Below are positions 11,707 through 26,416 of a stretch of DNA of 64,000 bases, piece by piece; the stretch's first letter is position 1; every line of letters begins with the position of its first letter. The DNA is from Candidatus Magasanikiibacteriota bacterium (GTDB lineage Bacteria; Patescibacteriota; Patescibacteriia; Magasanikbacterales; GWA2-37-8). The notes under the pieces were generated by a model that saw nothing but the letters and a program-made list of their open reading frames with translations, was not told the DNA's origin and did not search any database. The stretch lies in NCBI GenBank assembly GCA_963802255.1, contig CAWDHY010000001.1:363842-427841 (forward strand). Reading direction: 5' to 3'. The translations under genes were made by a program, and so were the position numbers.

Positions 11707-11728
11707 TTGGCTAAAATATCATATAAAT

Positions 11729-11753
11729 AAGGGCGCCCGACAGGGGCGCTCTT
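11729..11753 (+). terminator. Hairpin after the giant gene (AAGGGCGCC-cgacagg-GGCGCTCTT), weak T stretch
   Basis: Imperfect 9-bp inverted repeat 20 nt after the stop codon. Confidence 0.35.
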
Positions 11754-11760
11754 ATTGATC

Positions 11761-11789
11761 TTGACAAAATCGGTAAAATATGTTATATT
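11761..11789 (+). promoter_or_regulatory. Sigma70-type promoter: TTGACA - 17 nt - TATATT with extended -10 (TGt)
   Basis: Exact -35 hexamer and 17-nt spacer about 105 nt upstream of the FHA gene start; same architecture as the promoters at 18272, 18477 and 21647. Confidence 0.45.
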
Positions 11790-11893
11790 TCTTTGTTATG
11801 CTTTATTAAAAGGCATGCGTTCCTTTTATAGAAAATAGGCAAAAAAATTGTAACGAACATCCAAGAGGATGAAAAACCGAAAGGGGTTTTAAA

Positions 11894-13648
11894 ATGGCAG
11901 AGGATAAGAAGACGAAAGCTCTCACTTCACGCGGGAAAACCGTGGATGGAGAGTCGTCCGGAACGAAGCCGACGGGCACTTTGATCAGTGAAGCCGAAGC
12001 TCAGGCGGTAAGGGGCAATACGATGCCGCCGCCGAAGCCCGATCCCAGCCGGTTCCCCAGCACAATCGCGGAGATATCCGGTGAGGAGTCGGCCGATGAA
12101 GCGGACGTTGTCCGTGGAACGGAAGAACTGGAAGTCGGAGAGGGCGTTCGGCCGGTACGGCCGGACGAGACCATGCGAACGCGAGTTTCGGGAATGATCA
12201 AGGACGCACTCGGCAAGCCCGAGGAGCCCGAGCCCGTTCCCGCCAAGATCATCAACACGTCAGCCGCTAGTTCGGATACGTGGTCCAGCGTCGGCATCGA
12301 GGGCGATGAAGCGGCGGAAGAGAATCCGCTGGCGGATTTGCCCGCGCCAGAAATGGCCGAAGGCGAAGTGGTTCAGGATGAAAGTCCTGAAGTCGCTGAG
12401 CCGGAAGTGGTTTCGGCTGATGCGAGCGTGGATGCGGAGGAGGCCTCCCCGGAGGAAACGAACGGGACGCCTCACCAGGCGAGTCCTTACGTGGAGCTTC
12501 GGATGATCGAGGGCGGAATCGTTCTCGAGGGTCCTGCGGTGGAAGTGGGTGATGAGCTCATCATCGGCCGTGACAAGGGTTGCGGCATGGTGATCGAGTC
12601 GCGCTACATCTCCCGGCATCATGCGGTGATCACCAAGTCGAAGGATGGCGACAAGTTCGTCATCATCGATCTCGGGTCCAAGCAGAAAACGTTCGTCAAC
12701 GACTTCGTCGTGGAACGCGACAAGGAATTCGAAATCGCGCACGGAGATACCATCCGGTTTGGCCGGGCGGACTGCGGCGCCGAGCTCGTCTTTCACGATC
12801 CGATGGTTCAGAAAGCAGATGTGGTGGCGGATGCCACCGTCATGAACCCCGACACCGACAGCCAGCCGGCCGATTCCGTTTCTGCGGATGAGCCGGAGAA
12901 GGAGGAAGATGTGACGAAAGCGGAACAGCACGCTGAGACGCTCAGCATCGACACGGGCCCGCTCCAGGGTGCCGTCGACAGCGGAGGAAAGGATGGCGAG
13001 AAGCCCGACGCAGACGCGACGGTCGTACCGCCCGACTTGCCTCCGCCGCCCGCCGACATGAAGAAGGCAGATACCAAGGGCGACAAGAAGAAGCCCGCCG
13101 GCGCGAAGAGCGCCTCCGGTGGCGGAACGCCGCCGCGTCTCCCGCCCTCGACTCAGAACTACAGCAAGGTGCTCTCGTCGGTTTTCATCGTTCTCATGCT
13201 CATGGTGGTCTTCGTCTTCGGCGCTATCCTCGTCGTTCGCGAGGTGATACCGGGCATTACCGGTTTCTTCGCAGAAACGGCAACGGTCGTCCCCATAGCG
13301 CCGCCCGCACAGGTGGCGAAGACGTCGGCAACCCAGCTGGCCAGCACTCCGGTGCAGGGTGAGCTGGCCGACCAGGTGGTACTCGCGGTTCAGGTGCCGG
13401 AGTTTGCGGACCTCAGAAAGATCCAGCTACCCGATGCATATGTTCCGCCTGCCAAATCGCCGATCAAGGATTTCGCGAGAGGGGTAGTCCTCCCCAAGTC
13501 ATTTGAGGACTGCTTCCCCAAGAACGCCACACTCGAAGCGGCGGAAGTGGCCTGGTGTTGCTCCTTCTTGCATCCGAATGCGGGTGACCTGGATGAACTG
13601 ATCAGGATGTCCGACTGCATGATCAAGCTCGAGCAGATGCAATATTAA
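11894..13648 (+). CDS. FHA-domain membrane protein (N-terminal acidic/Pro-rich region, FHA domain, one TM, C-terminal Cys-containing extracytoplasmic tail)
   Basis: LIIGRDKGCGMVIESRYISRHHAVI...DLGSKQKTFVNDFVV...HGDTIRFG is a canonical FHA core (GR...SRxH...N.T.vN). TM segment VLSSVFIVLMLMVVFVFGAILVV. GC-rich codon usage (first gene of the island). Confidence 0.65.
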   Translation: MAEDKKTKALTSRGKTVDGESSGTKPTGTLISEAEAQAVRGNTMPPPKPDPSRFPSTIAEISGEESADEADVVRGTEELEVGEGVRPVRPDETMRTRVSGMIKDALGKPEEPEPVPAKIINTSAASSDTWSSVGIEGDEAAEENPLADLPAPEMAEGEVVQDESPEVAEPEVVSADASVDAEEASPEETNGTPHQASPYVELRMIEGGIVLEGPAVEVGDELIIGRDKGCGMVIESRYISRHHAVITKSKDGDKFVIIDLGSKQKTFVNDFVVERDKEFEIAHGDTIRFGRADCGAELVFHDPMVQKADVVADATVMNPDTDSQPADSVSADEPEKEEDVTKAEQHAETLSIDTGPLQGAVDSGGKDGEKPDADATVVPPDLPPPPADMKKADTKGDKKKPAGAKSASGGGTPPRLPPSTQNYSKVLSSVFIVLMLMVVFVFGAILVVREVIPGITGFFAETATVVPIAPPAQVAKTSATQLASTPVQGELADQVVLAVQVPEFADLRKIQLPDAYVPPAKSPIKDFARGVVLPKSFEDCFPKNATLEAAEVAWCCSFLHPNAGDLDELIRMSDCMIKLEQMQY

Positions 13649-13666
13649 TTTTTGCCTACCATTTCA

Positions 13667-13692
13667 GGGAAGCAACAGTCCTGTTGCTTCCC
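13667..13692 (+). other. Perfect 11-12-bp stem-loop GGGAAGCAACAG/CTGTTGCTTCCC directly after the FHA gene (no U-tract)
   Basis: Inverted repeat read directly; followed downstream by a second long inverted repeat ACGGGTGTT...AACACCCGT plus T8 ending at about 13854. Confidence 0.4.
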
Positions 13693-13914
13693 ATTCCCAT
13701 CGGATGCCTGTGTTAACGGACATCCCGAGGAATAATATTTTTTGCACTTTATCGCAATCACCTGGTTTTCACGGGTGTTGCAATAAAGTGCAACAAAACG
13801 CACCTTACAATATAACAAGCAAGGCAATTAGAAAAACACCCGTTTTTTTTCGAAGCAGAGGGTCCGTAACAAAACGCGCAGAGCGCGCGATAACGGAGAA
13901 AGGGAGAAATCAAG

Positions 13915-15384
13915 ATGAAGAGATTCTTCGTCAGTTTGTTCACGGCAGCGGCCATCATGTACTCGGTCGGCGTTTCCGCGCAGTCCGCGGTGGATGGTGA
14001 TTACGAGGTCCAAGATTGGATGACGGTGGATATCACCGAGTCCGATCCGGGCGCTCAGCAGAGCGCCACCAATCAGGCCGTATTCTTCGGTCTGCAGGAG
14101 GTGGCCGTTCATCTGAAGAGGCTCGAGAACAAGTGCACGTCACCCAATTCGGACGGCTGCACTGACGCGATCATCGCTGCCGAGAAAAAGGCCAGCGAGA
14201 TCGTGAAGACCCAGGGTCTCTCACCCAAACAGAAGCGCGCGGTCCGACGGATCGTCGATGAAGCCATCACGGCCGCGAACGTGGGCGACACCGAGGGTGT
14301 CAAGAAAATCCGCGAACAGCTCGCGGACCACGAACGGCGAATTGGCGATCTCGAGGGTGACGTTACGAAGCTCAAGAGCAAAGTGACAGCGATCGAGAGC
14401 GGTGGCACAGTGGTCATCTCTTCGGAAAGTGGTTCGTCGGTAGCGGATTCCATGGATACGCGGCGCAAGGCCGTAGTGGCGCAGTCCACGGCAGACGAGG
14501 CGTTGCGGGTGGCCAAAGAGGCCAAGACCGCAGCCGATGAAGCCAAGGCTGCCTCTGCCGGTGAAAATTCCGGTATTTCCAAGGAAGACTTCCAGATCGT
14601 CCGCGATGCCGCGGCTGACGCGCAAGCGCGAGCCGATCTGGCACAGCGTGCTGCCGAGGAAGCCAAGGAAGCGGCCGATAAGGCTCTCGCCGGTTCCGAC
14701 AACGCGAACGAGTCCGGTGATGCCGAGGCGCTCGCGGATGCCAACAGGCGTTCGGACGAGGCCCTGACACAGGCCAAGGAAGCTCTCGCCAAGGCGGAAG
14801 AGGCGCGCGAGAATTCCGATGGTCTTGCCGATCAGATCGCGGCGCTCAAGACCGACATCGGCGCTTTGGAAGCCAAGCTCGATAAGAAGCAGGATGCCAA
14901 CGAGGTGGAGGCCGGTCTCGGCTATTTCACCACCGGCAAGATTTTCGCCCCAACCGTAGGTGTTACCTACACCGTGCGGCGCGGAGATATCCGGCTGGCG
15001 ATTGGCGCTGACTTCGGCTACCACTTCTTCTACGACAACATCGAGTACGAGCCCGAGATCAGAATCCTGTTCAACAGCTACTTCCGGCTCGGATACCAGT
15101 TCGTGGATTGGTTCTCCGCAGGCATCGGCGCATTTTCCTACAGCGCCGGCCAGCCCTATTCCGACACTTTCGGTTTCGGAGCAGAGTTGAGCGCCCGGTT
15201 CAACTGGATGCTCACGGACGCTCTCGGAATGGCCGTGGAGCTCTGGGGAGGACCCACCTACGAGTGGCAGAAGGTCACTAATCCGGAACCGCCGGATGTC
15301 GGTGCCAATGAGATCTACAAAAGCACTGACCAAAAAGGCGGTGCTTCCGGCGCCGGAGGCCTCCGGTTGACCCTCACGTTCTAA
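13915..15384 (+). CDS. Secreted protein: signal peptide, Ala-rich coiled-coil stalk, C-terminal beta-rich domain ending in an OMP-like beta-signal (…GLRLTLTF)
   Basis: MKRFFVSLFTAAAIMYSVGVSAQS signal peptide. Heptad-like AKEAKTAADEAKAAS...AEEAKEAADKALAG region. The C-terminal 160 aa has alternating aromatic/hydrophobic beta-strand patterns and a terminal Phe. RBS GGAGAAAGGGAG upstream. Confidence 0.6.
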   Translation: MKRFFVSLFTAAAIMYSVGVSAQSAVDGDYEVQDWMTVDITESDPGAQQSATNQAVFFGLQEVAVHLKRLENKCTSPNSDGCTDAIIAAEKKASEIVKTQGLSPKQKRAVRRIVDEAITAANVGDTEGVKKIREQLADHERRIGDLEGDVTKLKSKVTAIESGGTVVISSESGSSVADSMDTRRKAVVAQSTADEALRVAKEAKTAADEAKAASAGENSGISKEDFQIVRDAAADAQARADLAQRAAEEAKEAADKALAGSDNANESGDAEALADANRRSDEALTQAKEALAKAEEARENSDGLADQIAALKTDIGALEAKLDKKQDANEVEAGLGYFTTGKIFAPTVGVTYTVRRGDIRLAIGADFGYHFFYDNIEYEPEIRILFNSYFRLGYQFVDWFSAGIGAFSYSAGQPYSDTFGFGAELSARFNWMLTDALGMAVELWGGPTYEWQKVTNPEPPDVGANEIYKSTDQKGGASGAGGLRLTLTF

Positions 15385-15410
15385 GTTCTTTCCTGCCTTT
15401 GTTTGTTCTT

Positions 15411-15438
15411 GGGGCGAATGCGTTCTGCATATCGCCCC
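15411..15438 (+). terminator. Hairpin GGGGCGAatgcgttctgcaTATCGCCCC after gene 13915-15384
   Basis: 8-bp GC stem 27 nt after the stop; only a weak T-run follows. Confidence 0.35.
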
Positions 15439-15628
15439 CTCTATTTTGCCAATTATTATTTGTTGGCAGAATAGGGGATACACTTTGGCCCTTTCGCATT
15501 TTTATGCGATAATACCAAAGAAAGAAATATAATCTGTTCATTACAACTGACTGATAGTAAATAAGACAGCCGATGATGGCTGTTTCAACACAGAAATTTC
15601 GGGCAAAGACCCGAGAAAGGAACATAAA

Positions 15629-17272
<1,644 letters not shown>

Positions 17273-17310
17273 TCTTATCAGTTAGTTAAGTTCTTTCCGT
17301 TTGTTCTTTT

Positions 17311-17341
17311 GCGGCCGCGTGTTCTCACGCGGCCGCTTTTT
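17311..17341 (+). terminator. Rho-independent terminator GCGGCCGCGtgttctcaCGCGGCCGC + TTTTT
   Basis: 9-bp GC stem then U-tract, 38 nt after the stop of gene 15629-17272. Confidence 0.6.
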
Positions 17342-17365
17342 ATTTTATTTTAAAAATTTTTTTAA

Positions 17366-17397
17366 TAAAAAAACACCGAGCCAGATTGGCTCGGTGT
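17366..17397 (-). terminator. Rho-independent terminator for the minus-strand gene (CACCGAGCC-aatct-GGCTCGGTG + U7 on the minus strand)
   Basis: Plus strand shows aaaaaaaCACCGAGCCagattGGCTCGGTG, 22 nt downstream of the 17420 stop. Confidence 0.55.
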
Positions 17398-17419
17398 GGG
17401 ATGTGCGGAAGAGCAAGGG

Positions 17420-18079
17420 TTAAAGAGCGGAGAGAGCGGCGGGGGGAAGTGGACGGTAGAGGCTGTACATCCGGAGGAGGCATTCGTTCCGATACGGAAC
17501 AGGCAGTGCCTCGCAGCAGGGTTGCACGTTCTCTCGGCACAACACCGGACCGCCGGAAAAGCAGATGTCGGAAGGGTTCGGCGTGATGGCCGGAGGAGCT
17601 GTGAGCGTCGGCGGCTCCTTGTCCGTCACGTCTTCTCCGCGGTTGGCCACGGAGTAGGCGATCCAGCCGGCCAGCAGCAGGAGGATGATGATGACGATGA
17701 TCCATCCGATGGGGATGTCCCTCACCGGGCGGTGCGGCGGCGTCTGCTCGGCCTGCTCACGGAGTCGGGCGTTCAGCGCCGCTTCCTCGGCGACACGTCG
17801 CGCTTCGGCCTCTTCGCGGAGGCGAGCGTTCTGAGCCGATTCTTCTGCTGCGCGTCGCGTGCGTTCGACTTCCTCGGCCGCCAAGCGCGCTTTCTCGCGC
17901 TCGACGCTTTCGTCCACCATCTTGATGCCTTTGTCCACGACCTTCATCGCGGCCGCGAACATCTTCGCGCCGTAGTCATCCACGCTTTTCGCCGTCTTGG
18001 CACCCGGCTTCTGCTGATCGCCAGTCTTGCCATGGCCTCCGCCTTGCTGAGAGCCGTTCTGATTATTGTCGTTTGCCAT
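17420..18079 (-). CDS. Membrane protein: Gly/Gln-rich N-terminus, AEEA/ARLRE-repeat coiled coil, one TM, short Cys-rich C-terminal tail
   Basis: Start MANDNNQ at 18079 with GGAG 7 nt upstream; TM IGWIIVIIILLLLAGWIAY; C-terminal ...DICFSGGPVLCRENVQPCCEALPVPYRNECLL. The annotated ORF-track start at 18163 is probably too long. Confidence 0.55.
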   Translation of the reverse strand: MANDNNQNGSQQGGGHGKTGDQQKPGAKTAKSVDDYGAKMFAAAMKVVDKGIKMVDESVEREKARLAAEEVERTRRAAEESAQNARLREEAEARRVAEEAALNARLREQAEQTPPHRPVRDIPIGWIIVIIILLLLAGWIAYSVANRGEDVTDKEPPTLTAPPAITPNPSDICFSGGPVLCRENVQPCCEALPVPYRNECLLRMYSLYRPLPPAALSAL

Positions 18080-18213
18080 TTGCAAATCTCCTTTTTTGGA
18101 ATGGCTTCTCGCCGGTTTTTTAGTTTGGTTGTCAATGGTGCTGCCAAAAAATGACAGTATCAATAAATAATCAAATTAAATATTTAAAATATATTGATCT
18201 AAATTAACTAATC

Positions 18214-18242
18214 ATCTTAGCACATTTATTGGAGTATGTCAA
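18214..18242 (-). promoter_or_regulatory. Candidate divergent promoter for gene 17420-18079 (minus strand TTGACA - 17 - TAAGAT, with aaatgtgc extended -10 context)
   Basis: Minus-strand reading gcccaTTGACAtactccaataaatgtgcTAAGAT; shares the aaatgtgc-TAnAnT context with the plus-strand promoters. Confidence 0.3.
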
Positions 18243-18271
18243 TGGGCTAATTGGCCATTTTGGTAGGGGGC

Positions 18272-18300
18272 TTGACAAAATCATACAAATGTGGTATACT
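18272..18300 (+). promoter_or_regulatory. Sigma70 promoter TTGACA - 17 nt - TATACT, extended -10 (TGg)
   Basis: cTTGACAaaatcatacaaatgtggTATACT; perfect -35, 17-nt spacer, 5/6 -10. Confidence 0.55.
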
Positions 18301-18306
18301 ATCCCT

Positions 18307-18430
18307 TGTAAGTGAAAAATATAAGTTTTTGGCCTGCGTTTGAGAGAGGCGCCTGTCAAAAACAACCTAAATATGCCTAATTATATCAAGGCATAATACC
18401 CGAAAACTCTCTCAAAAGGAGAGGTTTTTT
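18307..18430 (+). ncRNA. Candidate short transcript or leader from promoter 18272, ending at an intrinsic terminator (CUCUC-aaaag-GAGAG + U6) just before the second promoter
   Basis: tGAGAGAGg (18341-18349) can pair with CTCTCTCA (18407-18414); the same CUCUC can instead pair with GGAGAGG (18418-18424) followed by TTTTTT (18425-18430). Internal ATGCCT/AGGCAT hairpin. No ORF. Confidence 0.3.
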
Positions 18431-18476
18431 CTTTAAAATAAGGCAAAATTGTTCAATAGTTGAGTCTTTAATGGTG

Positions 18477-18505
18477 TTGACAAAATTGCTTAAATGTGCT
18501 ATACT
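18477..18505 (+). promoter_or_regulatory. Sigma70 promoter TTGACA - 17 nt - TATACT, extended -10 (TGc)
   Basis: gTTGACAaaattgcttaaatgtgcTATACT, about 170 nt upstream of the start at 18676. Confidence 0.55.
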
Positions 18506-18675
18506 TATACGTTAAGATAAATTTTCCTTTACTTTGCGCCTATCTTTCAAGAGCGGGTGCAGACTGAGGGAAATTTCCTTAGAAAAGCTCTTTTCATATA
18601 GAAAGAAGTTGAAAGAAACAGCGGCCGTGAGTCGGCCATAACAAGCCGCACTGCGGCGCAATATTGGAGGATCCG

Positions 18676-19714
18676 ATGAAAAACGTCATCGTGACCGTGT
18701 TCGTAGTGCACTGCGCCATGTTCGTTTCGGCGAACGCCCTCGCGCAGTACAATGGCGCTAGCCCCGCCGGCCCGCTCATCGTGGACAACTTGTCCGCCAT
18801 GCAGGCGGCCGGCCGGTGCGTCTCGCAGATCCAGACGGTCTGCAACGGCTACTGGAACGCCCCCGGGTGTTCGCAGGCCGTGATCGACTGCGACAAGGTA
18901 CGCTCCGGTGCCAAGAAGGCGGCCACCGGCCTGACCAAGAAGCAGGTCATCGCCATCGTTGAAGACGCAATCAAGGGTCTCGCCAGCAAGGCGGATCTCG
19001 ATGCTCTCGCGAAGCGTGTGGCCGCGCTCGAGGATGGTCTGGCCAAGGAAGCTGCGGCACGCGCCGCTGCCGATGAGGCACTCCAGGCGGATATCGACGA
19101 GCATAAGGCCGCGGAGTGTCACGACGGCGAACGGCGCTGCACGGACGAAAATACGCCGGCGGTTTGTACGGACGGTAAGTACGTCGACCAGCCAGACTGC
19201 GGCGAGGACACCTTCTGCAACGACGGGCTTTGTATGGAAGAAGCCTTGGGACGAGGACATCAACGCCCTGAAGGATGAAGTCATGTTCGAGATCGGCGCT
19301 ACGTTCTTCGGCGCTCCTCACCTTCAGGCGATCGGTGCCGCGGCTGGTTTGCAGCTGCGGATTGCCGACAACATCGCGGTGGTGGGAGACCTCGGGCTCG
19401 GCTACGCCTTCGACAAGGATGTGGCCGTGATCGCGAGTGGTGGTGTTGTCTTCTACGTGACCGAGAAGTTCGGTCTCGGACCCGTCGCACTCTTCGGCAA
19501 GGAGAGTTTTGATGACGAAGGTGACGTCGAAGTTGGTGGAGGTGTGGAGCTTCGGTTCCGTACCGGCACCGGTTTCTTCGTCTCTGGAACCATCGGCCTC
19601 GGCGCTGAGGGAGTGCTTCAGAAGATCGGCACGCGTCCTGACGGCGAGAAGCTGACCGACCGCGAGTGGGGCCTGGCCGTCATGGGCGGGCTCATGATCG
19701 GCGGCGAGTTCTAA
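18676..19714 (+). CDS. Paralog of 13915-15384 (signal peptide, Cys/coiled-coil region, C-terminal beta-rich domain ending ...GGLMIGGEF), interrupted by a +1 frameshift near 19233-19247
   Basis: GGAGG RBS + ATG at 18676, signal peptide MKNVIVTVFVVHCAMFVSANALAQ. Frame 1 runs to 19278 (…FCNDGLCMEEALGRGHQRPEG*). The overlapping +1 frame (ORF 18959-19714) continues …WDEDINALKDEVMFEIGATFFG…, homologous to the C-terminal domain of 13915-15384. Either a pseudogene or a sequence error. Confidence 0.5.
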
Positions 19715-19948
19715 CCAACCAGTTCTTTCCTTTCTATATAAGGTCGGCGCGATTCTGCGCCGGCCTCCCAACTCTTGCGTACAAAATTTGTTCGCAGAAG
19801 TTGGGACCAAAGTTCTCATATAAAAATTGGGAACGACGGAGCACCCATTAAAATAGCTCTTTGAAATATTATTAGGAACTTAAAAGTTTAGAAACGCAAC
19901 GAACGAAACACATCCCGACACGTCGGGATTGACAAAAAGGAGATACCG

Positions 19949-21415
19949 ATGAAGACCATCGCTATGATTCTCTGGGTTGCTCTGGTCGTGATCGCGGCGA
20001 GCGCGTGTGGTGTGGAGGCGGGCGACGGTGACTTCACCGCGACCGCGGACACCGACAGCGACACCGACTCCGACACGGATTCGGACAGCGATTCGGACAC
20101 CGACAGCGACACCGACTCCGACACGGATTCGGACAGCGATTCGGACACCGACAGCGACACCGACTCCGACACGGACGAGTGTACGGATGGCGAGGTCGGG
20201 TGCACCGACGACGACTCCTTCCACATCTGCGTGGATGGTCAGTGGTCGGCGGAACTCGATTGCGCCGGCGACCTCGTCTGCGAAGACGGTGAGTGTGTCG
20301 ATCCGGGTTCGGACTGCGAGGACGGCGAGAGTGAGTGCACCGACGACGATTCGTACCACGTGTGCGTCGGCGGCAGCTGGTCGGCAACGATTGACTGTGC
20401 CGATGGCTACGAGTGTGCGGAAGGTCAGTGCGAGCTCGTTCAGATCTGCGATCCCGGTGACGAGCGCTGCTACGGCGGAAACGCCCAGCAGTGCAACAGC
20501 GCCGGAACGGCTTGGGCCACCATCGATTTCTGCGCCTCCGATGAGGAGTGCGTGGTGGTGGGTGGCGAGGCTGAGTGCGTCGCGGACACGATTTGCACCC
20601 CCTACGACGAGCGCTGCTACGGCGGAAACGCCCAGCAGTGCAACAGCGCCGGAACGGCTTGGGCTGTCATCGACTACTGCGCCTCCGATGAGGACTGCGT
20701 GGTGGTGAGCGGTGAGGCCGAGTGCGTGTCCGATTCTATCTGCACCCCCTACGACGAGCGCTGCTACGGCGGAAACGCCCAGCAGTGCAACAGCGCCGGA
20801 ACAGCTTGGGTCACCATCGACACCTGCGGCTCCGACGAGGAGTGCGAGATGGTGGGTGACGAAGCCGAGTGTCACGAGTGCGGCGCATTCAACAGCTATG
20901 ACTGTCCCAGCGGGGAAACCTGCGAAGAGGGACAGTGCGTAGGCGGCGATGACGACGAGTGCATCGTCGGCGACCCGGCACATCAGTGCGACGAAGGGTA
21001 CGCCTGTGTGGATGGCGAGTGTGTGGAGGCCGACTGCACGGGCGCGACTGATTGTCCGACAGGGCAGGTCTGCCACATCCTCGGAACGCGCTTCGAGACC
21101 GTGGGTAGCGAGATCTACGGGTACAAGATCGACGGCGTTTGCGCTTCGGCCCCGTCCGGTACCGCCGAGTGTTGGGACAGGGACTGGGACGGCAGCGCCC
21201 TGACGATCGGCGGAGTGTGTGAGCTGTTCTACAGCGAGTACTCCCCGGACGTCTGGTACTCCTACCAGAGCACCCCGCACTGCCAGGGTTCGTCCTGGCA
21301 CAACCCGATCCCAGAATGCTGTATCCGGGACAGTATGGACAAGTGCGTCAAGCATACGGTTTCCACCGGCTTGGGCACGATCATGTCCAGCTCCTGGATC
21401 GCCCGCGTTATCTAG
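19949..21415 (+). CDS. Lipoprotein, (S/T)D-repeat Cys-rich family member 2 (488 aa)
   Basis: Signal/lipobox VVIAASACG; SD/TD tract; three near-identical about 40-aa Cys modules (CxPYDERCYGGNAQQCNSAGTAWAxIDxCASDEECVVVxGEAECV); C-terminal ECWDRDWDGSALTIGGVC...IPECC domain shared with family. Confidence 0.65.
   Translation: MKTIAMILWVALVVIAASACGVEAGDGDFTATADTDSDTDSDTDSDSDSDTDSDTDSDTDSDSDSDTDSDTDSDTDECTDGEVGCTDDDSFHICVDGQWSAELDCAGDLVCEDGECVDPGSDCEDGESECTDDDSYHVCVGGSWSATIDCADGYECAEGQCELVQICDPGDERCYGGNAQQCNSAGTAWATIDFCASDEECVVVGGEAECVADTICTPYDERCYGGNAQQCNSAGTAWAVIDYCASDEDCVVVSGEAECVSDSICTPYDERCYGGNAQQCNSAGTAWVTIDTCGSDEECEMVGDEAECHECGAFNSYDCPSGETCEEGQCVGGDDDECIVGDPAHQCDEGYACVDGECVEADCTGATDCPTGQVCHILGTRFETVGSEIYGYKIDGVCASAPSGTAECWDRDWDGSALTIGGVCELFYSEYSPDVWYSYQSTPHCQGSSWHNPIPECCIRDSMDKCVKHTVSTGLGTIMSSSWIARVI
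20048..20170 (+). repeat. 48-nt tandem repeat about 2.5 copies (SD/TD dipeptide tract)
   Basis: gacaccgacagcgacaccgactccgacacggattcggacagcgattcg repeated. Confidence 0.75.
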
Positions 21416-21646
21416 TAGTTCCTACCTTGTTCTTTCAGGTCGACGGCGCCTTTAAAGCCGTCAATTCATATGAGATGATCTGTCTCTCGGATAATCTCAG
21501 ATGAATCAAAGAATCCGGGCCTTGTGCCGGGATTTTTTGTTTTTGATGATTACATGGTTTTGCTGTCACAAACACACCTCTTTATGCGTAATATCTAATG
21601 TAATATCAGTGGTTTTTGACATTTTTGTGGATAATCATATAAACAC

Positions 21647-21675
21647 TTGACAACAGAGCCAAAAAGTGTTAATAT
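21647..21675 (+). promoter_or_regulatory. Sigma70 promoter TTGACA - 17 nt - TAATAT, extended -10 (TGt)
   Basis: cTTGACAacagagccaaaaagtgtTAATAT about 300 nt upstream of gene 21973. Confidence 0.5.
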
Positions 21676-21716
21676 TTAGTGTTACAATTTATGTGTATTT
21701 CAAGCTGATTAGCAAT

Positions 21717-21775
21717 TGAGAGAGGTGGCTAATTTTGGCGAAATACAGCGCAAAACCTCTCTCGGCGAGGTTTTT
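21717..21775 (+). promoter_or_regulatory. Conserved leader element: GAGAGAGG ... CCUCUCUC hairpin followed by a short GC stem and U-run (attenuator-like)
   Basis: tGAGAGAGG (21717-21725) is perfectly complementary to CCTCTCTC (21756-21763), followed by ggcgaggTTTTTgttaTTTTT; same GA/CU motif pair as in leader 18341-18424. Confidence 0.35.
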
Positions 21776-21972
21776 GTTATTTTTATTGGCGTCAATATTT
21801 TCATGCTAAATTTTTTGGCTTGAAACAGGGACGCTTCCCCTGGCCGTACTCGCTTATGCGTAATTCGGCTTGAAGCTAAATATAATAGTACCTTGAAAAT
21901 TGAAGGGAACAAAAATAAACAATCGCGATTGGAATCGCGACAAACAGAATCGAAGGAAAAGAGGAGGAAAAG

Positions 21973-24723
21973 ATGAGAAAGTATTTGGTCTGGTTTGCGA
22001 TCGTCCTGTCTGCGACCGGATGTATCTCGCCGAACATGGGGGGAAACGGAGACGAGTACAAGTTCGGCAGTGACACGGACACGGACACGGACACCGACAC
22101 GGACACCGACACGGACACCGACACGGACACCGACACGGACACCGACACGGACACCGACACGGACACCGACACGGACACCGACACGGACACCGACACGGAC
22201 ACCGACACGGACACCGACACGGACACCGACACGGACACCGACACGGACACCGACACGGACACCGACACGGACACCGACACGGACACCGACACGGACACCG
22301 ACACGGACACCGACACGGACACCGACACTGGTGACGGTGGCCCGGATGGTGGAGACACTGATTCGGGCGTTGACTGCATCAGCGGGCCGTGTTGCAACGC
22401 GGGCGGATTCTTCCAACCCGAAGGATACCCTTGCGCTTCGTTCGCCGAGTATCAATGCAATGGGACTCTTTGCGGAGCCGACGCTCAGTCGCGCTCAGTG
22501 ACGCAGTTCTGCTCGGGCGAAAGTTTCGAGTGCGACGGCGATACGTTCGAGACGGTCTGGGCGACAATCCAGAACTGTTCAGACTCCGACGTCTGCAACA
22601 CCGATATGGTTTCTTATGCCGAGTGCGCCGAGTGCGACCTTGGTTGTGAAGATGTCGGTGGAATCGGCGACTGTCTTTTGGAGTGCGATCCTGCCGACGA
22701 ATGCTGCGGATCCGATGGTCTCTTCGAGATCGTGGGCACCCTTTGTGGTGATTCATCCGACAGCGTGTGCGACGGAGCGGATACTTGCGACGGCGCCGGT
22801 GTGTGCCTCGAGAATATCGAGCCAGACACGACTGAATGCCACGCATCTGCCGGAGATTGCGACATCACGGAATTCTGTGATGGCGCTGGCGCTTGTCCTA
22901 CCGATACGTTCGAAGCGGCGCTTATTGAGTGCCGTCCTTCCGCTGGTGTTTGCGATATCGCTGAGTACTGTACCGGCGATTCGCCGGCTTGTCCTTCCGA
23001 TGAGGTGGAGTTCACGAGTTTGCCCTGCGACAGCTGGGCAGAATATCAGTGCTTCGCCGGAACCGGAGATGGATGCGGAGCTGACGCTCAAGCGCGTTGG
23101 GCTACGCAGTACTGTGGCGGTGGGGTTTCGTGCGATGGCAGTATCTTCAGTACCGCCTGGATGACTATCCAGAATTGCGGTGATGATGATATTTGTTTCA
23201 CCGATACCTTCTCCTACGCCGAGTGTGAGGTCTGTGATGTCGGCTGTACGGATGGTGAATGTGATGATCTGCCTGACGGCGGCGCTGACACCGACACCGA
23301 CACCGACACGGATACGGATACGGACACGGACACGGATACCGACACGGATACCGACACGGATACGGATACCGACACGGATACCGACACGGATACCGATACC
23401 GACACCGATACGGATACCGATACGGACACGGACACGGATACGGATACCGATACCGACACGGATACCGACACGGATACCGATACGGACACGGATACCGACA
23501 CGGATACCGATACGGATACCGATACGGATACCGATACGGATACCGATACCGATACCGATACGGATACCGATACTGGGGACTGCGTCCCTGGCGATATGTG
23601 CTGTGATCTCGCCGGCAATTTCGAGCCGGCCGGTACGTCCTGCGGTGACACCACTGCTTCGACCTGCGACAACCCCGACACCTGTGATGGTGGCGGCAAC
23701 TGCGAGTCGAACTACGAGCCGACTACCACTGTTTGCCGCCCGGCGGCAGACATCTGCGACGTGGATGATTTCTGCAATGGTGCAGGACTCTGCGATCCGG
23801 ACGAGGTGGAGCTCGAGTTCGTGGAGTGCCGAGGTTCTCTCGGTGCTTGCGACGCGGTGGATTACTGCGATGGTATCACCACATCGTGTGATGACGGACT
23901 GCTCTTCGGCGATGTCTGCCACGCTTCGGCCGGCGACTGTGATCCCGAGGAGACCTGCGACGGTGCGTTGCCGGATTGTCCGGTCGACACGCTCGAGCCA
24001 GACACCACGGTATGCCGTGCGGAAACCGGTGACTGCGACAACGCCGAGACCTGTACCGGTAGCTCTGCTACCTGTCCGGCCGACACGTTCAAGTCGCCGT
24101 CTACCATCTGCGATACCTCCTACGAGTTCAGATGCAATGGCTCGCTCTGCGGGTCCGATGCTCAGCGCAGACTGGTTCGCCAGTACTGTGACGGCACCGG
24201 TGCCGCCTGTGACGGGTCCATCTACTACAACAGCTGGTTGACGATCGAAAACTGCGACGCTTCCTCTGTTTGCATCGCGACTCCCATTTCTGCTACCTGC
24301 GACGTTTGCGGTTACGAGTGTCAGAACATTCCTGACGGTACCTGCGTCGGCGAAGAGGACGAACCCTGTGCTGAGCCTCCTTTCGAGGAGTGCGATGACG
24401 GGCTCGTCTGCACCGAAGGTATCTGCGGTACCGAACCCGATGGCGGGACGGACGGCGGAATCGACGGCGGCGCTGACACCGACACCGGATACCGATACGG
24501 ACACCGACACGGATACGGATACGGATACCGACACGGATACGGACACCGACACGGACACCGACACGGACACCGATACCGACACGGACACGGACACCGACAC
24601 GGATACCGACACGGATACGGATACCGATACGGATACCGATACGGACACCGATACGGATACCGATACGGATACCGATACGGATACCGATACGGATACCGAT
24701 ACTGGGGACTGCGTCCCTGGTGA
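21973..24723 (+). CDS. Lipoprotein family member 3, segment A of a 4.2-kb gene (real frame ends at a +1 frameshift about 24487; the ORF tail to 24723 is an out-of-frame read of the repeat as GYRYGHRHG...)
   Basis: Lipobox LSATGC followed by [16 protein letters not shown] (same post-Cys motif as 15629). About 42 consecutive TD dipeptides, Cys-rich modules (CRxxxGxCDxxExCxGxxxxCPxD), second TD tract, first copy of the 909-bp block. Confidence 0.6.
22093..22326 (+). repeat. Perfect 12-nt tandem repeat (gacaccgacacg) x about 19.5, encoding (TD)n
   Basis: Exact head-to-tail copies over about 234 nt, read directly from the sequence. Confidence 0.9.
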
Positions 24724-25609
24724 TACGTGCTGTGATCTCGCCGGCAATTTCGAGCCGGCCGGTACGTCCTGCGGTGACACCACTGTTTCGACCTGCGACA
24801 ACCCCGACACCTGTGATGGTGGCGGCAACTGCGAGTCGAACTACGAGCCGACTACCACTGTTTGCCGCCCGGCGGCAGACATCTGCGACGTGGATGATTT
24901 CTGCAATGGTGCAGGACTCTGCGATCCGGACGAGGTGGAGCTCGAGTTCGTGGAGTGCCGAGGTTCTCTCGGTGCTTGCGACGCGGTGGATTACTGCGAT
25001 GGTATCACCACATCGTGTGATGACGGACTGCTCTTCGGCGATGTCTGCCACGCTTCGGCCGGCGACTGTGATCCCGAGGAGACCTGCGACGGTGCGTTGC
25101 CGGATTGTCCGGTCGACACGCTCGAGCCAGACACCACGGTATGCCGTGCGGAAACCGGTGACTGCGACAACGCCGAGACCTGTACCGGTAGCTCTGCTAC
25201 CTGTCCGGCCGACACGTTCAAGTCGCCGTCTACCATCTGCGATACCTCCTACGAGTTCAGATGCAATGGCTCGCTCTGCGGGTCCGATGCTCAGCGCAGA
25301 CTGGTTCGCCAGTACTGTGACGGCACCGGTGCCGCCTGTGACGGGTCCATCTACTACAACAGCTGGTTGACGATCGAAAACTGCGACGCTTCCTCTGTTT
25401 GCATCGCGACTCCCATTTCTGCTACCTGCGACGTTTGCGGTTACGAGTGTCAGAACATTCCTGACGGTACCTGCGTCGGCGAAGAGGACGAACCCTGTGC
25501 TGAGCCTCCTTTCGAGGAGTGCGATGACGGGCTCGTCTGCACCGAAGGTATCTGCGGTACCGAACCCGATGGCGGGACGGACGGCGGAATCGACGGCGGC
25601 GCTGACACC
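23572..25609 (+). repeat. Tandem direct duplication: two 909-bp near-identical copies (23572-24480 and 24701-25609) separated by a 220-bp TD-repeat tract (period 1129 bp)
   Basis: Copies align base for base from actggggactgcgtccctgg... to ...cgacggcggcgctgacacc. Only a few substitutions are visible (ggcgatatg vs ggtgatacg; actgcttcg vs actgtttcg). The antisense ORFs 23862-24107 and 24991-25236 are identical. Confidence 0.85.
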
Positions 25610-25765
25610 GATACGGATACCGATACGGATACGCGACACGGACACGGATACCGACACGGATACGGACACCGACACGGATACCGACACGGATACCGACACG
25701 GATACGGATACCGATACGGATACCGACACGGATACGGATACCGAACTCTGGGAGTGTGTGTCTGA
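24368..25765 (+). CDS. Segment B of the same gene (real coding about 24487-25634 in this frame; second copy of the Cys-rich block). The ORF-track N-terminus MLSLLS... is an out-of-frame artefact.
   Basis: The frame carries PDTDTDTD... then [25 protein letters not shown]... identical to segment A residues, then [11 protein letters not shown] followed by an RHGHGY out-of-frame repeat read after a second +1 shift near 25634. Confidence 0.5.
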   Translation: MLSLLSRSAMTGSSAPKVSAVPNPMAGRTAESTAALTPTPDTDTDTDTDTDTDTDTDTDTDTDTDTDTDTDTDTDTDTDTDTDTDTDTDTDTDTDTDTDTDTDTDTDTDTDTGDCVPGDTCCDLAGNFEPAGTSCGDTTVSTCDNPDTCDGGGNCESNYEPTTTVCRPAADICDVDDFCNGAGLCDPDEVELEFVECRGSLGACDAVDYCDGITTSCDDGLLFGDVCHASAGDCDPEETCDGALPDCPVDTLEPDTTVCRAETGDCDNAETCTGSSATCPADTFKSPSTICDTSYEFRCNGSLCGSDAQRRLVRQYCDGTGAACDGSIYYNSWLTIENCDASSVCIATPISATCDVCGYECQNIPDGTCVGEEDEPCAEPPFEECDDGLVCTEGICGTEPDGGTDGGIDGGADTDTDTDTDTRHGHGYRHGYGHRHGYRHGYRHGYGYRYGYRHGYGYRTLGVCV

Positions 25766-26213
25766 CACTGACTGCACTGATCCGGCTTTGCCCATCTGCT
25801 CACAGTTCCACATCTGCGTGGAGTGTGAGTACGGCGAAGACTGTTTCGTCGATGAAGGGTGTGGCAAGGAATCGTTCACCTGCGAACCCATTCCGAAGCC
25901 CGCAGTGGGTGAGTATCTGTTCTGTTGGGACCTCGATCCCGACGGCGACCCCCTCACTATCAACAGTACTTGTGATGACTTCGACGTCGTTGATGGCTGT
26001 GACTACTGGGGGCCGGTGCCCTGGCAGTACGAGGAAGGCGTAGGTATGCCGATTTGTGGCAGCTGCGATTGGGTCGTCGATCACTGTGAGGCGTGTGCCG
26101 AACAGGAACCCATTCCGGAGTGTTGCCTCAGCAATCAGTGGAACTTCTTTGAGCTGGATCCTGTGGAGCGGATTTGTCTGACGCAGGGACTGCTCATTGA
26201 ATTCATTCCATAG
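25497..26213 (+). CDS. Segment C of the same gene (real coding about 25634-26213: TD tract plus conserved C-terminal domain FCWDLDPDGDPLTINSTC...IPECC)
   Basis: Frame carries (TD)n then ELWECVSDTDCTD... and the family C-terminal domain; stop at 26211-26213. Confidence 0.55.
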   Translation: MLSLLSRSAMTGSSAPKVSAVPNPMAGRTAESTAALTPIRIPIRIRDTDTDTDTDTDTDTDTDTDTDTDTDTDTDTDTDTDTELWECVSDTDCTDPALPICSQFHICVECEYGEDCFVDEGCGKESFTCEPIPKPAVGEYLFCWDLDPDGDPLTINSTCDDFDVVDGCDYWGPVPWQYEEGVGMPICGSCDWVVDHCEACAEQEPIPECCLSNQWNFFELDPVERICLTQGLLIEFIP

Positions 26214-26240
26214 ATAGTTCCCTCCAATCGTTCTTTTCTC

Positions 26241-26260
26241 GCCCCATCTTCGGATGGGGC
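26241..26260 (+). other. GC hairpin GCCCCATC-ttcg-GATGGGGC (UUCG tetraloop) 28 nt after the gene end
   Basis: Perfect 8-bp stem read from the sequence. Confidence 0.5.
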
Positions 26261-26312
26261 AAATCACCATGAGATTATCATTACTCTCTCTTTGATGATC
26301 TCAGTTGATACG

Positions 26313-26346
26313 CAAAACCCGTCTTTACCGGCGGGTTTTGCGTTTT
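26313..26346 (+). terminator. Rho-independent terminator CAAAACCCG-tctttaccgg-CGGGTTTTG + CGTTTT
   Basis: 9-bp stem followed by U-rich run; closes the GC-rich island. Confidence 0.6.
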
Positions 26347-26416
26347 ATTGTAGGATTATATTCAAGTAAAAATTATTTATCATAATAGTAGAAATAAAAG
26401 ATGATAATATTTACTT

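Follow-up and report, generated by a model that had tools for sequence, protein, structure and literature searches.

The 64,000-nucleotide stretch of Candidatus Magasanikiibacteriota contig CAWDHY010000001.1 that was analysed here (the window; 64 kb of a 628-kb contig) raises the question of how a block of genes rich in guanine and cytosine (GC), hereafter the island, came to lie, and to stay, in an AT-rich chromosome with AT-rich spacers between its genes. A preliminary description had seen in it foreign-looking coding sequences wired to native-looking regulatory DNA, and had proposed either old horizontal acquisition with family expansion in situ or a bias driven by protein composition. The island is probably a vertically inherited envelope cluster, restricted to a clade within Candidatus Magasanikiibacteriota, whose open reading frames (ORFs) are held GC-rich by a force acting on the translated sequence only. 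No description of such a cluster in bacteria of the Candidate Phyla Radiation (CPR) was found in the literature.

The genes of the island, in window coordinates and with GC content at third codon positions (GC3) for some of them, are:

11894..13648, plus strand: FHA-domain membrane protein of 584 amino acids, with the FHA domain at residues 223–290, one hydrophobic segment and a Cys-containing C-terminus; GC3 0.726
13915..15384, plus strand: p489, with a signal peptide, a helical stalk and a C-terminal eight-stranded barrel (predicted) ending in Phe
15629..17272, plus strand: p547, a predicted lipoprotein with three (Thr/Ser-Asp)n tracts, Cys-rich segments and a CWDxDxDG…PIPECC C-terminal module; GC3 0.714
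17420..18079, minus strand: p247, a small membrane protein of 219 amino acids from MANDNNQ, with one transmembrane segment and a Cys-motif C-terminus; GC3 0.718 on the full 17420–18163 ORF
18664..19714, plus strand: gene A, frameshifted, encoding a signal peptide, a Cys-containing domain, a coiled coil and a beta-rich C-terminus ending in Phe
19949..21415, plus strand: p488, a predicted lipoprotein with a (Ser/Thr-Asp)n tract, three 147-bp Cys-rich repeats and the C-terminal module; GC3 0.814
21973..26213, plus strand: large lipoprotein gene, encoding ~1,410 amino acids if repaired, with four (Thr-Asp)n tracts, disintegrin-like Cys-rich regions and the C-terminal module

Composition and codon usage

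The rest of the window is uniformly ~0.41 GC, whereas the stretch from 11.9 to 26.2 kb is ~0.60 GC. In 1-kb windows, host DNA (that outside the island) averages 0.411 ± 0.029 GC with a maximum of 0.469, and the 12–26 kb region averages 0.576. A 200-bp scan resolves the island into coding blocks of 0.55–0.70 GC and troughs of 0.32–0.44 in most intergenic spacers, the exception being the spacer at 17.3 kb, which dips to 0.475 at most. When pooled, island spacers (0.381 GC) match those of the host (0.385), as had been noticed beforehand, and the boundaries first proposed for the block were right to within ~150 bp, the island coding sequence occupying 11894–26213.

The GC3 of nine island coding segments averages 0.726 (0.570–0.814), against 0.394 ± 0.038 (0.309–0.478) for 30 host genes; the ranges do not overlap (z = 8.6). 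The third base is most often C in eight of the ten ORF segments measured, and every codon family is inverted between island and host (AAG 0.84 vs 0.23; TTC 0.89 vs 0.14; ATC 0.84 vs 0.19; CTC 0.50 vs 0.05; TTA 0.00 vs 0.28), so that GC content, GC3 and the codon tables agree with the initial impression of GC-rich ORFs with C-ending codons among host genes with AT-ending codons. The codon-usage distance from rplT, infC and typA that the preliminary description had proposed to measure places L20, IF3 and TypA, together with SmpB, with the host and away from the island genes, all of which cluster together.

The island proteins are 14% Asp, 10% Thr and 5% Cys. The suggestion that protein composition drives the bias finds no support, however, since two-fold and four-fold synonymous sites carry the signal, and they do so also in the non-repeat genes for the FHA protein, p489 and p247.

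No comparable GC-rich block was found elsewhere in CPR bacteria across 1.24 Mb: only 12 of 884 CPR genes have a GC3 more than 0.20 above the median of their own locus, and none of the 12 are clustered. Two isolated occurrences in Magasanikibacteria were recorded. One is a lone GC-rich gene of 335 amino acids (L010 3966–4973; GC 0.59, GC3 0.69), possibly radical-SAM-like by eye from its Cys motif; the other is a 1.1-kb stretch of 0.57 GC (L008 3189–4289) without a convincing ORF.

Reality of the contig and identity of the host

The flanks of the island encode TypA, tRNA-Asp, L20, IF3, transfer-messenger RNA (tmRNA), SmpB, peptidoglycan-synthesis enzymes, an LtaS-like protein and polysaccharide genes. 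TypA shares 89% identity with its counterpart in a Candidatus Magasanikiibacteriota metagenome-assembled genome (MAG) from Lake Pavin sediment, and its other close matches are all from Patescibacteria/CPR.

Both junctions of the island recur in other assemblies. At the left junction, the giant gene that precedes the island, the FHA gene and the p489 gene occur together in two Logan contigs (ERR12035938, 12.2 kb; ERR15459710, 9.7 kb), the longer of which also holds SmpB, and the same arrangement is found in a sister genome and in that genome's own Logan assembly. At the right junction, a 4.4-kb Logan contig present in two samples begins within the final island gene, of which it has the last 165 codons, and continues across a gap into a Wzy_C gene and a GT4 gene, agreeing exactly with the window, the 228-bp spacing included. 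The Logan runs may share a sample with the source assembly and are therefore a check on the assembler, not necessarily on the sample; replication from different samples comes from the sister genome and three metagenomic contigs, four further loci that display the same mosaic. An assembly chimera, which the preliminary description had also doubted, is effectively excluded. It is true that (GACACN)n tracts like those of the island break short-read assemblies and that its proteins are unusually rich in Asp, Thr and Cys, but with recurrent junctions, replicate loci and a signal at synonymous sites, it is hardly credible that the island is an artefact of chimerism, contamination or a pure Asp/Thr/Cys/Gly-rich composition effect.

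Relatives and vertical descent

Five loci possess the cluster, the window included, with gene order and GC mosaic alike in all of them. The other four are:

L086, sister MAG (GCA_026396515.1, JAPLWQ010000005.1): whole island; gene GC3 0.63–0.81; 0.45–0.47 GC in 250-bp windows spanning the gaps
L084, Joint Genome Institute (JGI) contig of 4.5 kb: window 17.0–21 kb; gene GC 0.60–0.68; spacer GC 0.38–0.49
L003, Logan contig of 4.3 kb: window 18.6–26 kb; GC3 0.63–0.80; spacer GC 0.27–0.37
L088, Logan contig of 4.0 kb: FHA, p489 and p547 genes; GC3 0.81–0.88; spacer GC 0.33–0.44

In L086, of which the genome is 0.42–0.46 GC, the island occupies the same chromosomal site, after L20, L35, IF3, SmpB, p266, p366, a DUF5663 gene, a gene of 65 amino acids and the giant gene. 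After p488 it has an AT-rich gene, g685, and then the large-lipoprotein orthologue, where the locus ends.

The age of the island relative to its flanks was estimated from retention, defined as the excess over random expectation with which four-fold sites keep their third base where the amino acid is identical. For the pair formed by the window and L086, it is 0.254 ± 0.029 in six island genes (n = 671 sites) and 0.243 ± 0.023 in eight host genes from the flanks (n = 821 sites). The island is therefore older than the split of these two lineages and diverged along with the chromosome at the same synonymous rate. Equal four-fold retention excludes a fresh transfer, as the preliminary description had also concluded, along with independent acquisitions and hypermutation; hypermutation of the coding regions in particular was ruled out by a synonymous divergence the same as that of the flanks. 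The island proteins evolve faster than most host proteins: their identities to L086 are 40–66%, and seven host proteins out of eight reach 65–92%. The remaining one, p682, has just 23% identity to its L086 counterpart, which is probably not its orthologue.

Beyond these loci, relatives are few. Among 5.8 billion proteins, true homologues number two for p488, one for the FHA protein (the sister-genome protein P0007, 42% identical by BLASTP, and the only full-length homologue) and four for p489; a further FHA gene is present in L088. The C-terminal module of p488 matches just P0001 and P0024 among 1.84 billion representatives. A pattern-based genome scan with the FHA protein missed the sister-genome orthologue within the scanned collection, and is weak evidence for the absence of divergent proteins. 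L085 and P0003–P0005 were considered as relatives of the cluster and ruled out, because they share just a widespread Cys-rich repeat.

A sharply bounded block of deviant GC content and codon usage that encodes surface proteins resembles an acquired genomic island, the kind of compositional island to which the Lawrence–Ochman amelioration model of horizontal acquisition applies. The present island differs in that it occupies the same site in its sister and has the same neutral rate as its flanks, shows no amelioration after synonymous turnover, has spacers that are host-like in composition, and contains no integrase, transposase or phage gene detectable by Pfam and PHROGs scans of its proteins (the large lipoprotein was outside the PHROGs scan). 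Inheritance at one site and at one rate with the flanks excludes a classical genomic island. With no viral relatives found for the island proteins and no PHROGs matches, a phage or mobile element was likewise ruled out. The tRNA-Asp and tmRNA genes are 8–10 kb from the island, with seven host genes between.

Persistence of the GC bias

Old horizontal acquisition, as first proposed, is right as regards the age of the island; positive evidence for a horizontal origin is wanting, there being no donor-like homologues in the 5.8 billion proteins, and it is possible that the cluster was originally acquired. The explanation that follows from such an origin is an ancient acquisition from a GC-rich, probably diderm donor, followed by slow amelioration with no maintaining force, the spacers having evolved fast for expression in the host. 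Whether it suffices depends on how much of the ancestral synonymous state survives.

Among the window, L086, L084 and L003, the deeper pairs have four-fold retention values of 0.12, 0.08 and −0.03 and two-fold values of −0.02 to 0.09; next to no memory of the ancestral synonymous state is left. All four lineages nevertheless have 0.74–0.82 of their two-fold codons ending in G or C, where host genes have 0.25–0.31; GC content at four-fold sites is mostly 0.70–0.85 in island orthologues, and the fifth lineage, L088, has a GC3 of 0.81–0.88. Two-fold retention since the window–L086 split is 0.16 in the island and 0.27 in the host. Under the host substitution process, ~60% of the GC excess would have been lost per lineage (~48% if the host retention of 0.27 is used), and an ancestor with 100% GC-ending codons would be expected near 0.56–0.65 now, and much lower over the deeper splits.

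Replaced codons tell the same story. Those in which the amino acid changed between orthologues have a GC3 of 0.77–0.83, and unchanged codons 0.78–0.81, which argues that ongoing substitution inside island genes favours G and C. In the changed codons GC is also 0.58–0.62 at first positions (GC1) and 0.43–0.48 at second positions (GC2), against 0.52 and 0.37 in the host. The GC bias of the island ORFs thus appears to be maintained.

Ancient acquisition without maintenance would account for a composition shifted at all three codon positions and in amino-acid usage; a diderm origin would suit a barrel of outer-membrane type accompanied by lipoproteins, and some distant relatives of the Cys-rich repeat are of GC-rich type. 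The explanation is unlikely, however, when two-fold memory is only ~0–0.16 and GC-ending codons remain at 0.74–0.82, although even a wholly GC-ending ancestor should have fallen to about 0.5–0.65, and when changed codons are as GC-rich as unchanged ones. The missing donor-like homologues and the AT-rich look of the closest relatives of the repeat also speak against it. Nor do GC-rich CPR genomes resemble the mosaic: the difference between coding and spacer GC is 0.22 in the island and 0.03–0.09 in the GC-rich CPR loci L031 and L034, by which a GC-rich CPR donor with AT-rich spacers was ruled out.

Confinement of the bias to reading frames

The GC-richness starts and stops with translation. The first ten codons have a GC3 of 0.76 and the final ten 0.81; the 5′ leaders are 0.36–0.46 GC, with one hairpin (−21 to −40), which directly precedes the ribosome-binding site, reaching 0.57. 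Where island spacers of the window and L086 are aligned, GC is 0.41 at mismatches and 0.30 in indels, values like those of the host. The L086 gene g685 (19101–21158) acts as a natural control. It is a 2-kb AT-rich gene for a Lys/Glu-rich product of 685 amino acids (GC 0.43, GC3 0.40, two-fold GC-ending codons 0.27) with no homologue in the window, and it interrupts the middle of an island spacer, whose two parts remain close to the window: identity is 97% for the p488 terminator on one side and 80% for the large-lipoprotein promoter and leader on the other. The step at start and stop codons and the presence of an AT-rich gene inside the island indicate that GC-richness is a property of particular ORFs, not of the region. 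This speaks against mutation bias or GC-biased gene conversion on a regional scale, and against transcription-coupled effects.

Gene conversion deserves attention because of a precedent. In the vls system of Borrelia, surface-protein DNA of 49.1% GC lies in a ~28.6% GC genome, a deviation that its authors credit to selection linked to gene conversion and not to recent transfer (PMC11499132); the system consists of an expression site and an array of promoterless silent cassettes, with a coding-strand GC skew of ~0.52 and G-runs (PMC11499132). The island likewise is surface-protein coding DNA ~20 points above the AT-rich genome of a host-associated bacterium. It differs in being made of distinct genes that fall into three protein families and mostly possess a promoter-like site and terminator of their own, in having a coding-strand GC skew of 0.051, no cassettes and a synonymous divergence equal to that of the flanks, and in having one internal tandem duplication as its only large repeat. 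As an analogue, vls is the nearest documented precedent, and the island may be seen as a compositionally deviant surface-protein locus maintained by selection. A recombination hotspot with regional GC-biased gene conversion, as has been argued for antigenic-variation loci such as vls (PMC11499132), could draw on the paralogous families, tandem repeats and 96%-identical internal duplication of the cluster. It is nonetheless quite improbable, given the step at start and stop codons, the host-like composition of variable spacer positions, the embedded g685 with its GC3 of 0.40, a synonymous divergence that gives no hint of excess exchange, a skew of 0.05 instead of 0.52, and the lack of silent cassettes.

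If the bias belongs to the ORFs, the island genes might be the extreme of ordinary translational selection, that is, the most highly expressed genes of a genome in which G/C-ending codons are optimal. Strong extended −10 promoters, 5′ hairpins and GGAG ribosome-binding sites would be in keeping with high expression, and translation genes do show a mild shift of pyrimidine-ending (NNY) codons to C: 0.38–0.41, against 0.24 in the host and 0.68 in the island. The shift of purine-ending (NNR) codons to G is absent from ribosomal and translation-factor genes (0.22–0.30, host 0.27), however, while the island stands at 0.74–0.77. The host axis of translational selection was ruled out by this difference, the island being shifted in both classes; since L20, IF3 and TypA also group with the host in codon usage, and GC1 and GC2 are raised at replaced codons, an extreme of ordinary translational selection is an improbable explanation. 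The cause left over would be selection on the translated sequence, acting on the mRNA or on its decoding, or some undescribed process.

Spacers, promoters and leader elements

The spacers between the island genes are more conserved than the genes. Orthologous spacers of the window, L084 and L003 are 67–80% identical over 170–520 nucleotides (z 50–90), except that the spacer between gene A and p488 has no alignment to L003 (z 1–4). The spacers are 77–88% identical to those of L086, with 97% over the 128 nucleotides after p488, and two of the three compared with L088 are 73–76% identical, the third aligning in the promoter stretch only. The adjoining proteins are just 25–66% identical. Unrelated host spacers used as controls gave z 0–6. 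For L005, a relative about equally distant (four-fold retention 0.18), one of the two host spacers that were compared no longer aligns (z 0.4) and the other does so weakly (z 4.6 over 61 nucleotides). By these alignments, the spacers are cluster-specific DNA inherited with the cluster and not borrowed host DNA, and the original picture of foreign genes under native regulatory sequences is not supported.

Near-consensus sigma-70 promoters with an extended −10 TG are located at 11761, 18272, 18477 and 21647 on the plus strand and at 18242 on the minus strand. The preliminary description had such promoters throughout the spacers; they exist, but the strong ones are confined to three of the seven spacers that precede island genes, with weaker promoter-like sites (9 of 12) in two more and none in the other two. 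The terminators that it placed at the end of the giant gene and at 26.35 kb are both present, the latter at 26310–26343. The host has this sigma-70 consensus too, ahead of its tRNA genes and close to the L35–L20 operon, so the island promoters suit the host RNA polymerase. Of the extended promoter TTGACAAAATnGnTnAAATnTGnTATAnT, the island has three copies and L003 one; it is absent from the other 50 kb of the window and from 1.24 Mb of CPR DNA. The main spacer features are:

11707..11893, plus strand: spacer upstream of the FHA gene (GC 0.34), with the giant-gene terminator and promoter TTGACAAAATCGGTAAAATATGTTATATT (11761–11789; 11/12 with TG); 86% identical to L086, the promoter stretch 95% in L088
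17273..17419, both strands: convergent terminator pair of p547 and p247, with hairpins at 17311–17336 (plus) and 17397–17373 (minus); 79% identical to L086 over 105 nucleotides
18080..18663, both strands: divergent control region with a minus-strand promoter (18242–18214), P1 (18272–18300) and P2 (18477–18505), a leader element at 18301–18432 (GAGAGAG at 18342, CTCTCTC at 18407, terminator hairpin, T-run) and a second conserved leader after P2; 74% identical to L084, 70% to L003 and 79% to L086 over 357–394 nucleotides (z 64–153)
21416..21548, plus strand: 3′ element after p488 with three hairpins (fold −47.6 kcal/mol), ending in the p488 terminator (21514–21531); 97% identical to L086 over 128 nucleotides and alignable with L003
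21647..21972, plus strand: promoter (21647–21675), second copy of the leader element (GAGAGAG at 21718, CCTCTCTC at 21756, terminator 21752–21774) and the rest of the leader of the large lipoprotein gene; 80% identical to L086 over 418 nucleotides, the whole spacer 21416–21972 being 67% identical to L003 over 519 nucleotides
26214..26352, plus strand: last 3′ element of the island (fold −56.4 kcal/mol), with CTCTCTC in a hairpin loop at 26284 and the final terminator at 26310–26343; by eye paralogous to the element after p488 (similarity unscored)

The two 3′ elements (21416–21548 and 26214–26352) may be small RNAs derived from 3′ untranslated regions, or stabilisers. No Rfam family came near its gathering score for the spacer RNAs, the best being 29 bits against 60.

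The leader element has a fixed order: a promoter, an invariant GAGAGAG, a variable insert, and an invariant CTCTCTC, itself the 5′ half of a terminator hairpin, with a T-run behind the hairpin. Seven copies are known from four genomes, all in island spacers, of which a pattern scan retrieves six, the seventh having a shorter gap:

Window: 18301–18432 and 21676–21790
L086: 15847–15985 and 21313–21425
L084: 1435–1548
L003: 135–258 and 3405–3512

The GAGAGAG…CTCTCTC signature is found nowhere else in the window, where zero are expected by chance, or in 1.24 Mb of CPR DNA. The hairpin and T-run between promoter and gene (18407–18432 and 21752–21785) are kept in L086, L084 and L003. A long-range GAGAGAG:CUCUCUC helix is close in energy to the terminator, and either can be the minimum-free-energy fold, the helix being so in two of the five copies folded; both arms are invariant in all seven copies, so that no covariation signal is possible. 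This geometry is that of an attenuator, and the element could be a new leader or attenuator RNA.

A CCTACC or GTTCTTTC-type box was noticed in the first 40 nucleotides after most island stop codons (15384, 17272, 19714, 21415 and 26213). Pairing of this 3′ box with an AAGGnAAC box of the 5′ leaders was considered and is unsupported, the cognate value of −23.8 kcal/mol comparing with −21.4 ± 4.8 for non-cognate pairs and −21.8 ± 5.5 for shuffled ones.

Lipoprotein genes in which conserved 5′ regions precede a repeat-rich, rapidly changing coding sequence are known from Mycoplasma (vsp and vlp), a bacterium with a reduced genome. Unlike in those systems, the upstream regions of the island differ between paralogues and are conserved between orthologues.

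Products of the island

The preliminary description considered the island products to be envelope or secreted proteins, and the translations, together with domain and fold evidence, agree. The FHA protein has a Pfam FHA match (E=5e-18), its topology being read from the sequence. The p247 gene has same-strand orthologues in L084 and L086, and the one match of its product, to DotU, is weak and lies in the transmembrane region (E=0.004). The C-termini of the FHA protein (13400–13648) and p247 (17420–17560) were seen by eye to have in common a Cys motif, C-F…CC…C-[LM]-[IL]-[KR]-[LM], which suggests a common extracellular module.

Signal peptides, long helices and a beta-rich C-terminus ending in Phe are common to p489 and the product of gene A. 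All five p489 homologues end in Phe, as do the orthologues of gene A, which are intact proteins of 346, 331 and 331 amino acids in L084, L003 and L086, respectively; the second ORF fragment of gene A in the window (18959–19714) has an OMP_b-brl match at E=0.063. The predicted structure of p489 is a closed antiparallel eight-stranded barrel of OmpA/OmpW size on a helical stalk of ~280 residues, a modelled fold that would support, at the level of fold, the reading of its C-terminus as a beta-signal in the preliminary description. In fold and in its C-terminal aromatic residue, the model resembles the small eight-stranded barrels of the OmpA N-domain, OmpW, NspA and OprF-N, from which it differs in having no sequence-family match and in being fused to the stalk. 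Such a barrel is odd, because CPR bacteria are generally regarded as lacking an outer membrane.

The remaining products, p547, p488 and the large lipoprotein, have lipoprotein-type signals (…A-T/S-G/A-C), (Thr/Ser-Asp)n tracts, Cys-rich repeats and the common CWDxDxDG…PIPECC module. Tandem repeats in p547 have periods of 18 and 48. The large lipoprotein has a Pfam Disintegrin match (E=2e-14) and a 1.28-kb tandem duplication (23347–24627 vs 24475–25744) that is 96.4% identical; L086 and L003 show the N-terminus of its orthologue. Staphylococcal Sdr/Clf proteins of the MSCRAMM type (microbial surface components recognizing adhesive matrix molecules) similarly have (Ser/Thr-Asp)n tracts encoded by degenerate 12–48-bp repeats between domains. 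With the NCBIfam models for MSCRAMMs, however, only the SD-repeat region aligned, the best score being 134.7 bits against a cut-off of 999; no ligand-binding A domain was matched, the island proteins have a lipoprotein N-terminus, Cys-rich modules and a unique C-terminal module, and no LPXTG motif was noticed by eye in their translations, in which no formal search was made. The resemblance is one of analogy, not of membership.

The Cys-rich repeat of ~49 amino acids was found by profile search in 791 proteins, from both AT-rich and GC-rich genome types, none of which has the acidic stalk. In L001 (8633–12073; also in L002), a 31% GC contig of many small same-strand genes that is phage-like by eye, a protein with the repeat is encoded at GC3 0.12 beside a PA14-domain protein, an indication that the repeat can be written in AT-rich codons.

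Family expansion in situ is plausible, since paralogous sets are present: the three lipoproteins with their common C-terminal module, the two stalked proteins that end in Phe, and the 1.28-kb internal duplication.

Possible causes of the bias

The island proteins (two membrane proteins, one with the FHA domain and one small; two stalked proteins; and three Cys-rich lipoproteins with acidic stalks) would make up an envelope or host-contact apparatus and are probably part of the cell surface that touches the host organism. The AT-rich spacers would be the cluster's own regulatory cassettes, combining a terminator and a structured leader with a strong sigma-70 promoter and a GGAG ribosome-binding site. 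The two leaders in which GAGAGAG…CUCUCUC overlaps a terminator could attenuate transcription. The most likely cause of the GC-richness would be selection on the mRNA or on its decoding. The genes might depend on a particular tRNA supply or physiological state, as a subset of Streptomyces genes is tied to one tRNA by its TTA codons (bldA), unlike which the island has its whole codon table inverted and not one codon; the coding region might resist nucleases specific for A/U-rich sequence or A-rich codons; or codon choice might control the speed of translation of exported disulfide-rich proteins.

Several points weigh against a maintained, clade-restricted envelope cluster as the explanation. The decay calculation takes the host substitution process as otherwise applying. 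The window and L086 alone bear directly on long persistence in an AT-rich background, L003, L084 and L088 being short contigs that do not show the genomes around them. The fraction of amino acids encoded by AT-rich codons (F, Y, M, I, N and K) is 0.15 in the island and 0.32 in the host, and GC1, GC2 and amino-acid composition are shifted too, which is what long residence under a GC-biased process gives and would not be expected from pure matching to tRNAs. The barrel of p489 was modelled from an alignment of five sequences, with a predicted local distance difference test (pLDDT) score of 64 overall, and outer-membrane genes, including Bam and Lpt, are absent from the window, which has peptidoglycan-synthesis and LtaS-like genes. 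Finally, gene A has a 1-nucleotide frameshift near 19243 that splits it into two overlapping ORFs, although it is intact in all three other loci that hold it, and the large lipoprotein gene is spread over three frames by single-base insertions near 24487 (GACACC-G-GATACC) and 25632 (GATACG-C-GACACG), both at the boundaries of (GACACN)n repeat units; no frameshifts were noticed in host genes. The three frameshifts could be sequencing errors, partial decay or pseudogenisation, or phase variation.

A more elaborate version of the maintained cluster, possible but doubtful, would have two codon dialects in one genome: a host-contact regulon written in GC-rich codons, gated by tRNA supply or protected from nucleases, coordinated by the leader RNA, and anchoring its OmpA-like barrels in the outer membrane of the host cell.

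Deviant GC content and codon usage are routinely taken as signs of recent transfer and are expected to fade. If the present interpretation holds up, the island is a clear counter-example and a natural system for the study of selection on coding-sequence GC or codon dialect. Its stalked barrels, Cys-rich lipoproteins and FHA membrane protein are concrete candidates for the host-attachment machinery of CPR bacteria, and its leader element is a pointer to a new candidate regulatory RNA.

Neighbouring genes

Upstream of the island (6433–11706) are the DUF5663 gene, the gene of 65 amino acids and the giant gene, which encodes a Lys/Glu-rich protein of 1,576 amino acids with several hydrophobic segments. 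All are of host composition and are kept in the sister genome, where the giant protein is 65% identical.

The genes directly after the island (26441–29144), also of host composition, encode a membrane protein of the Wzy_C family and a GT4 glycosyltransferase. O-oligosaccharyltransferases occur among Wzy_C proteins, and the two products might glycosylate the Thr/Ser-Asp stalks of the island lipoproteins.

The tmRNA of the window (3547–3940, minus strand) has an unusually long predicted tag peptide, ANLFNNVKAAIAGAFSPSMSFATVAV.

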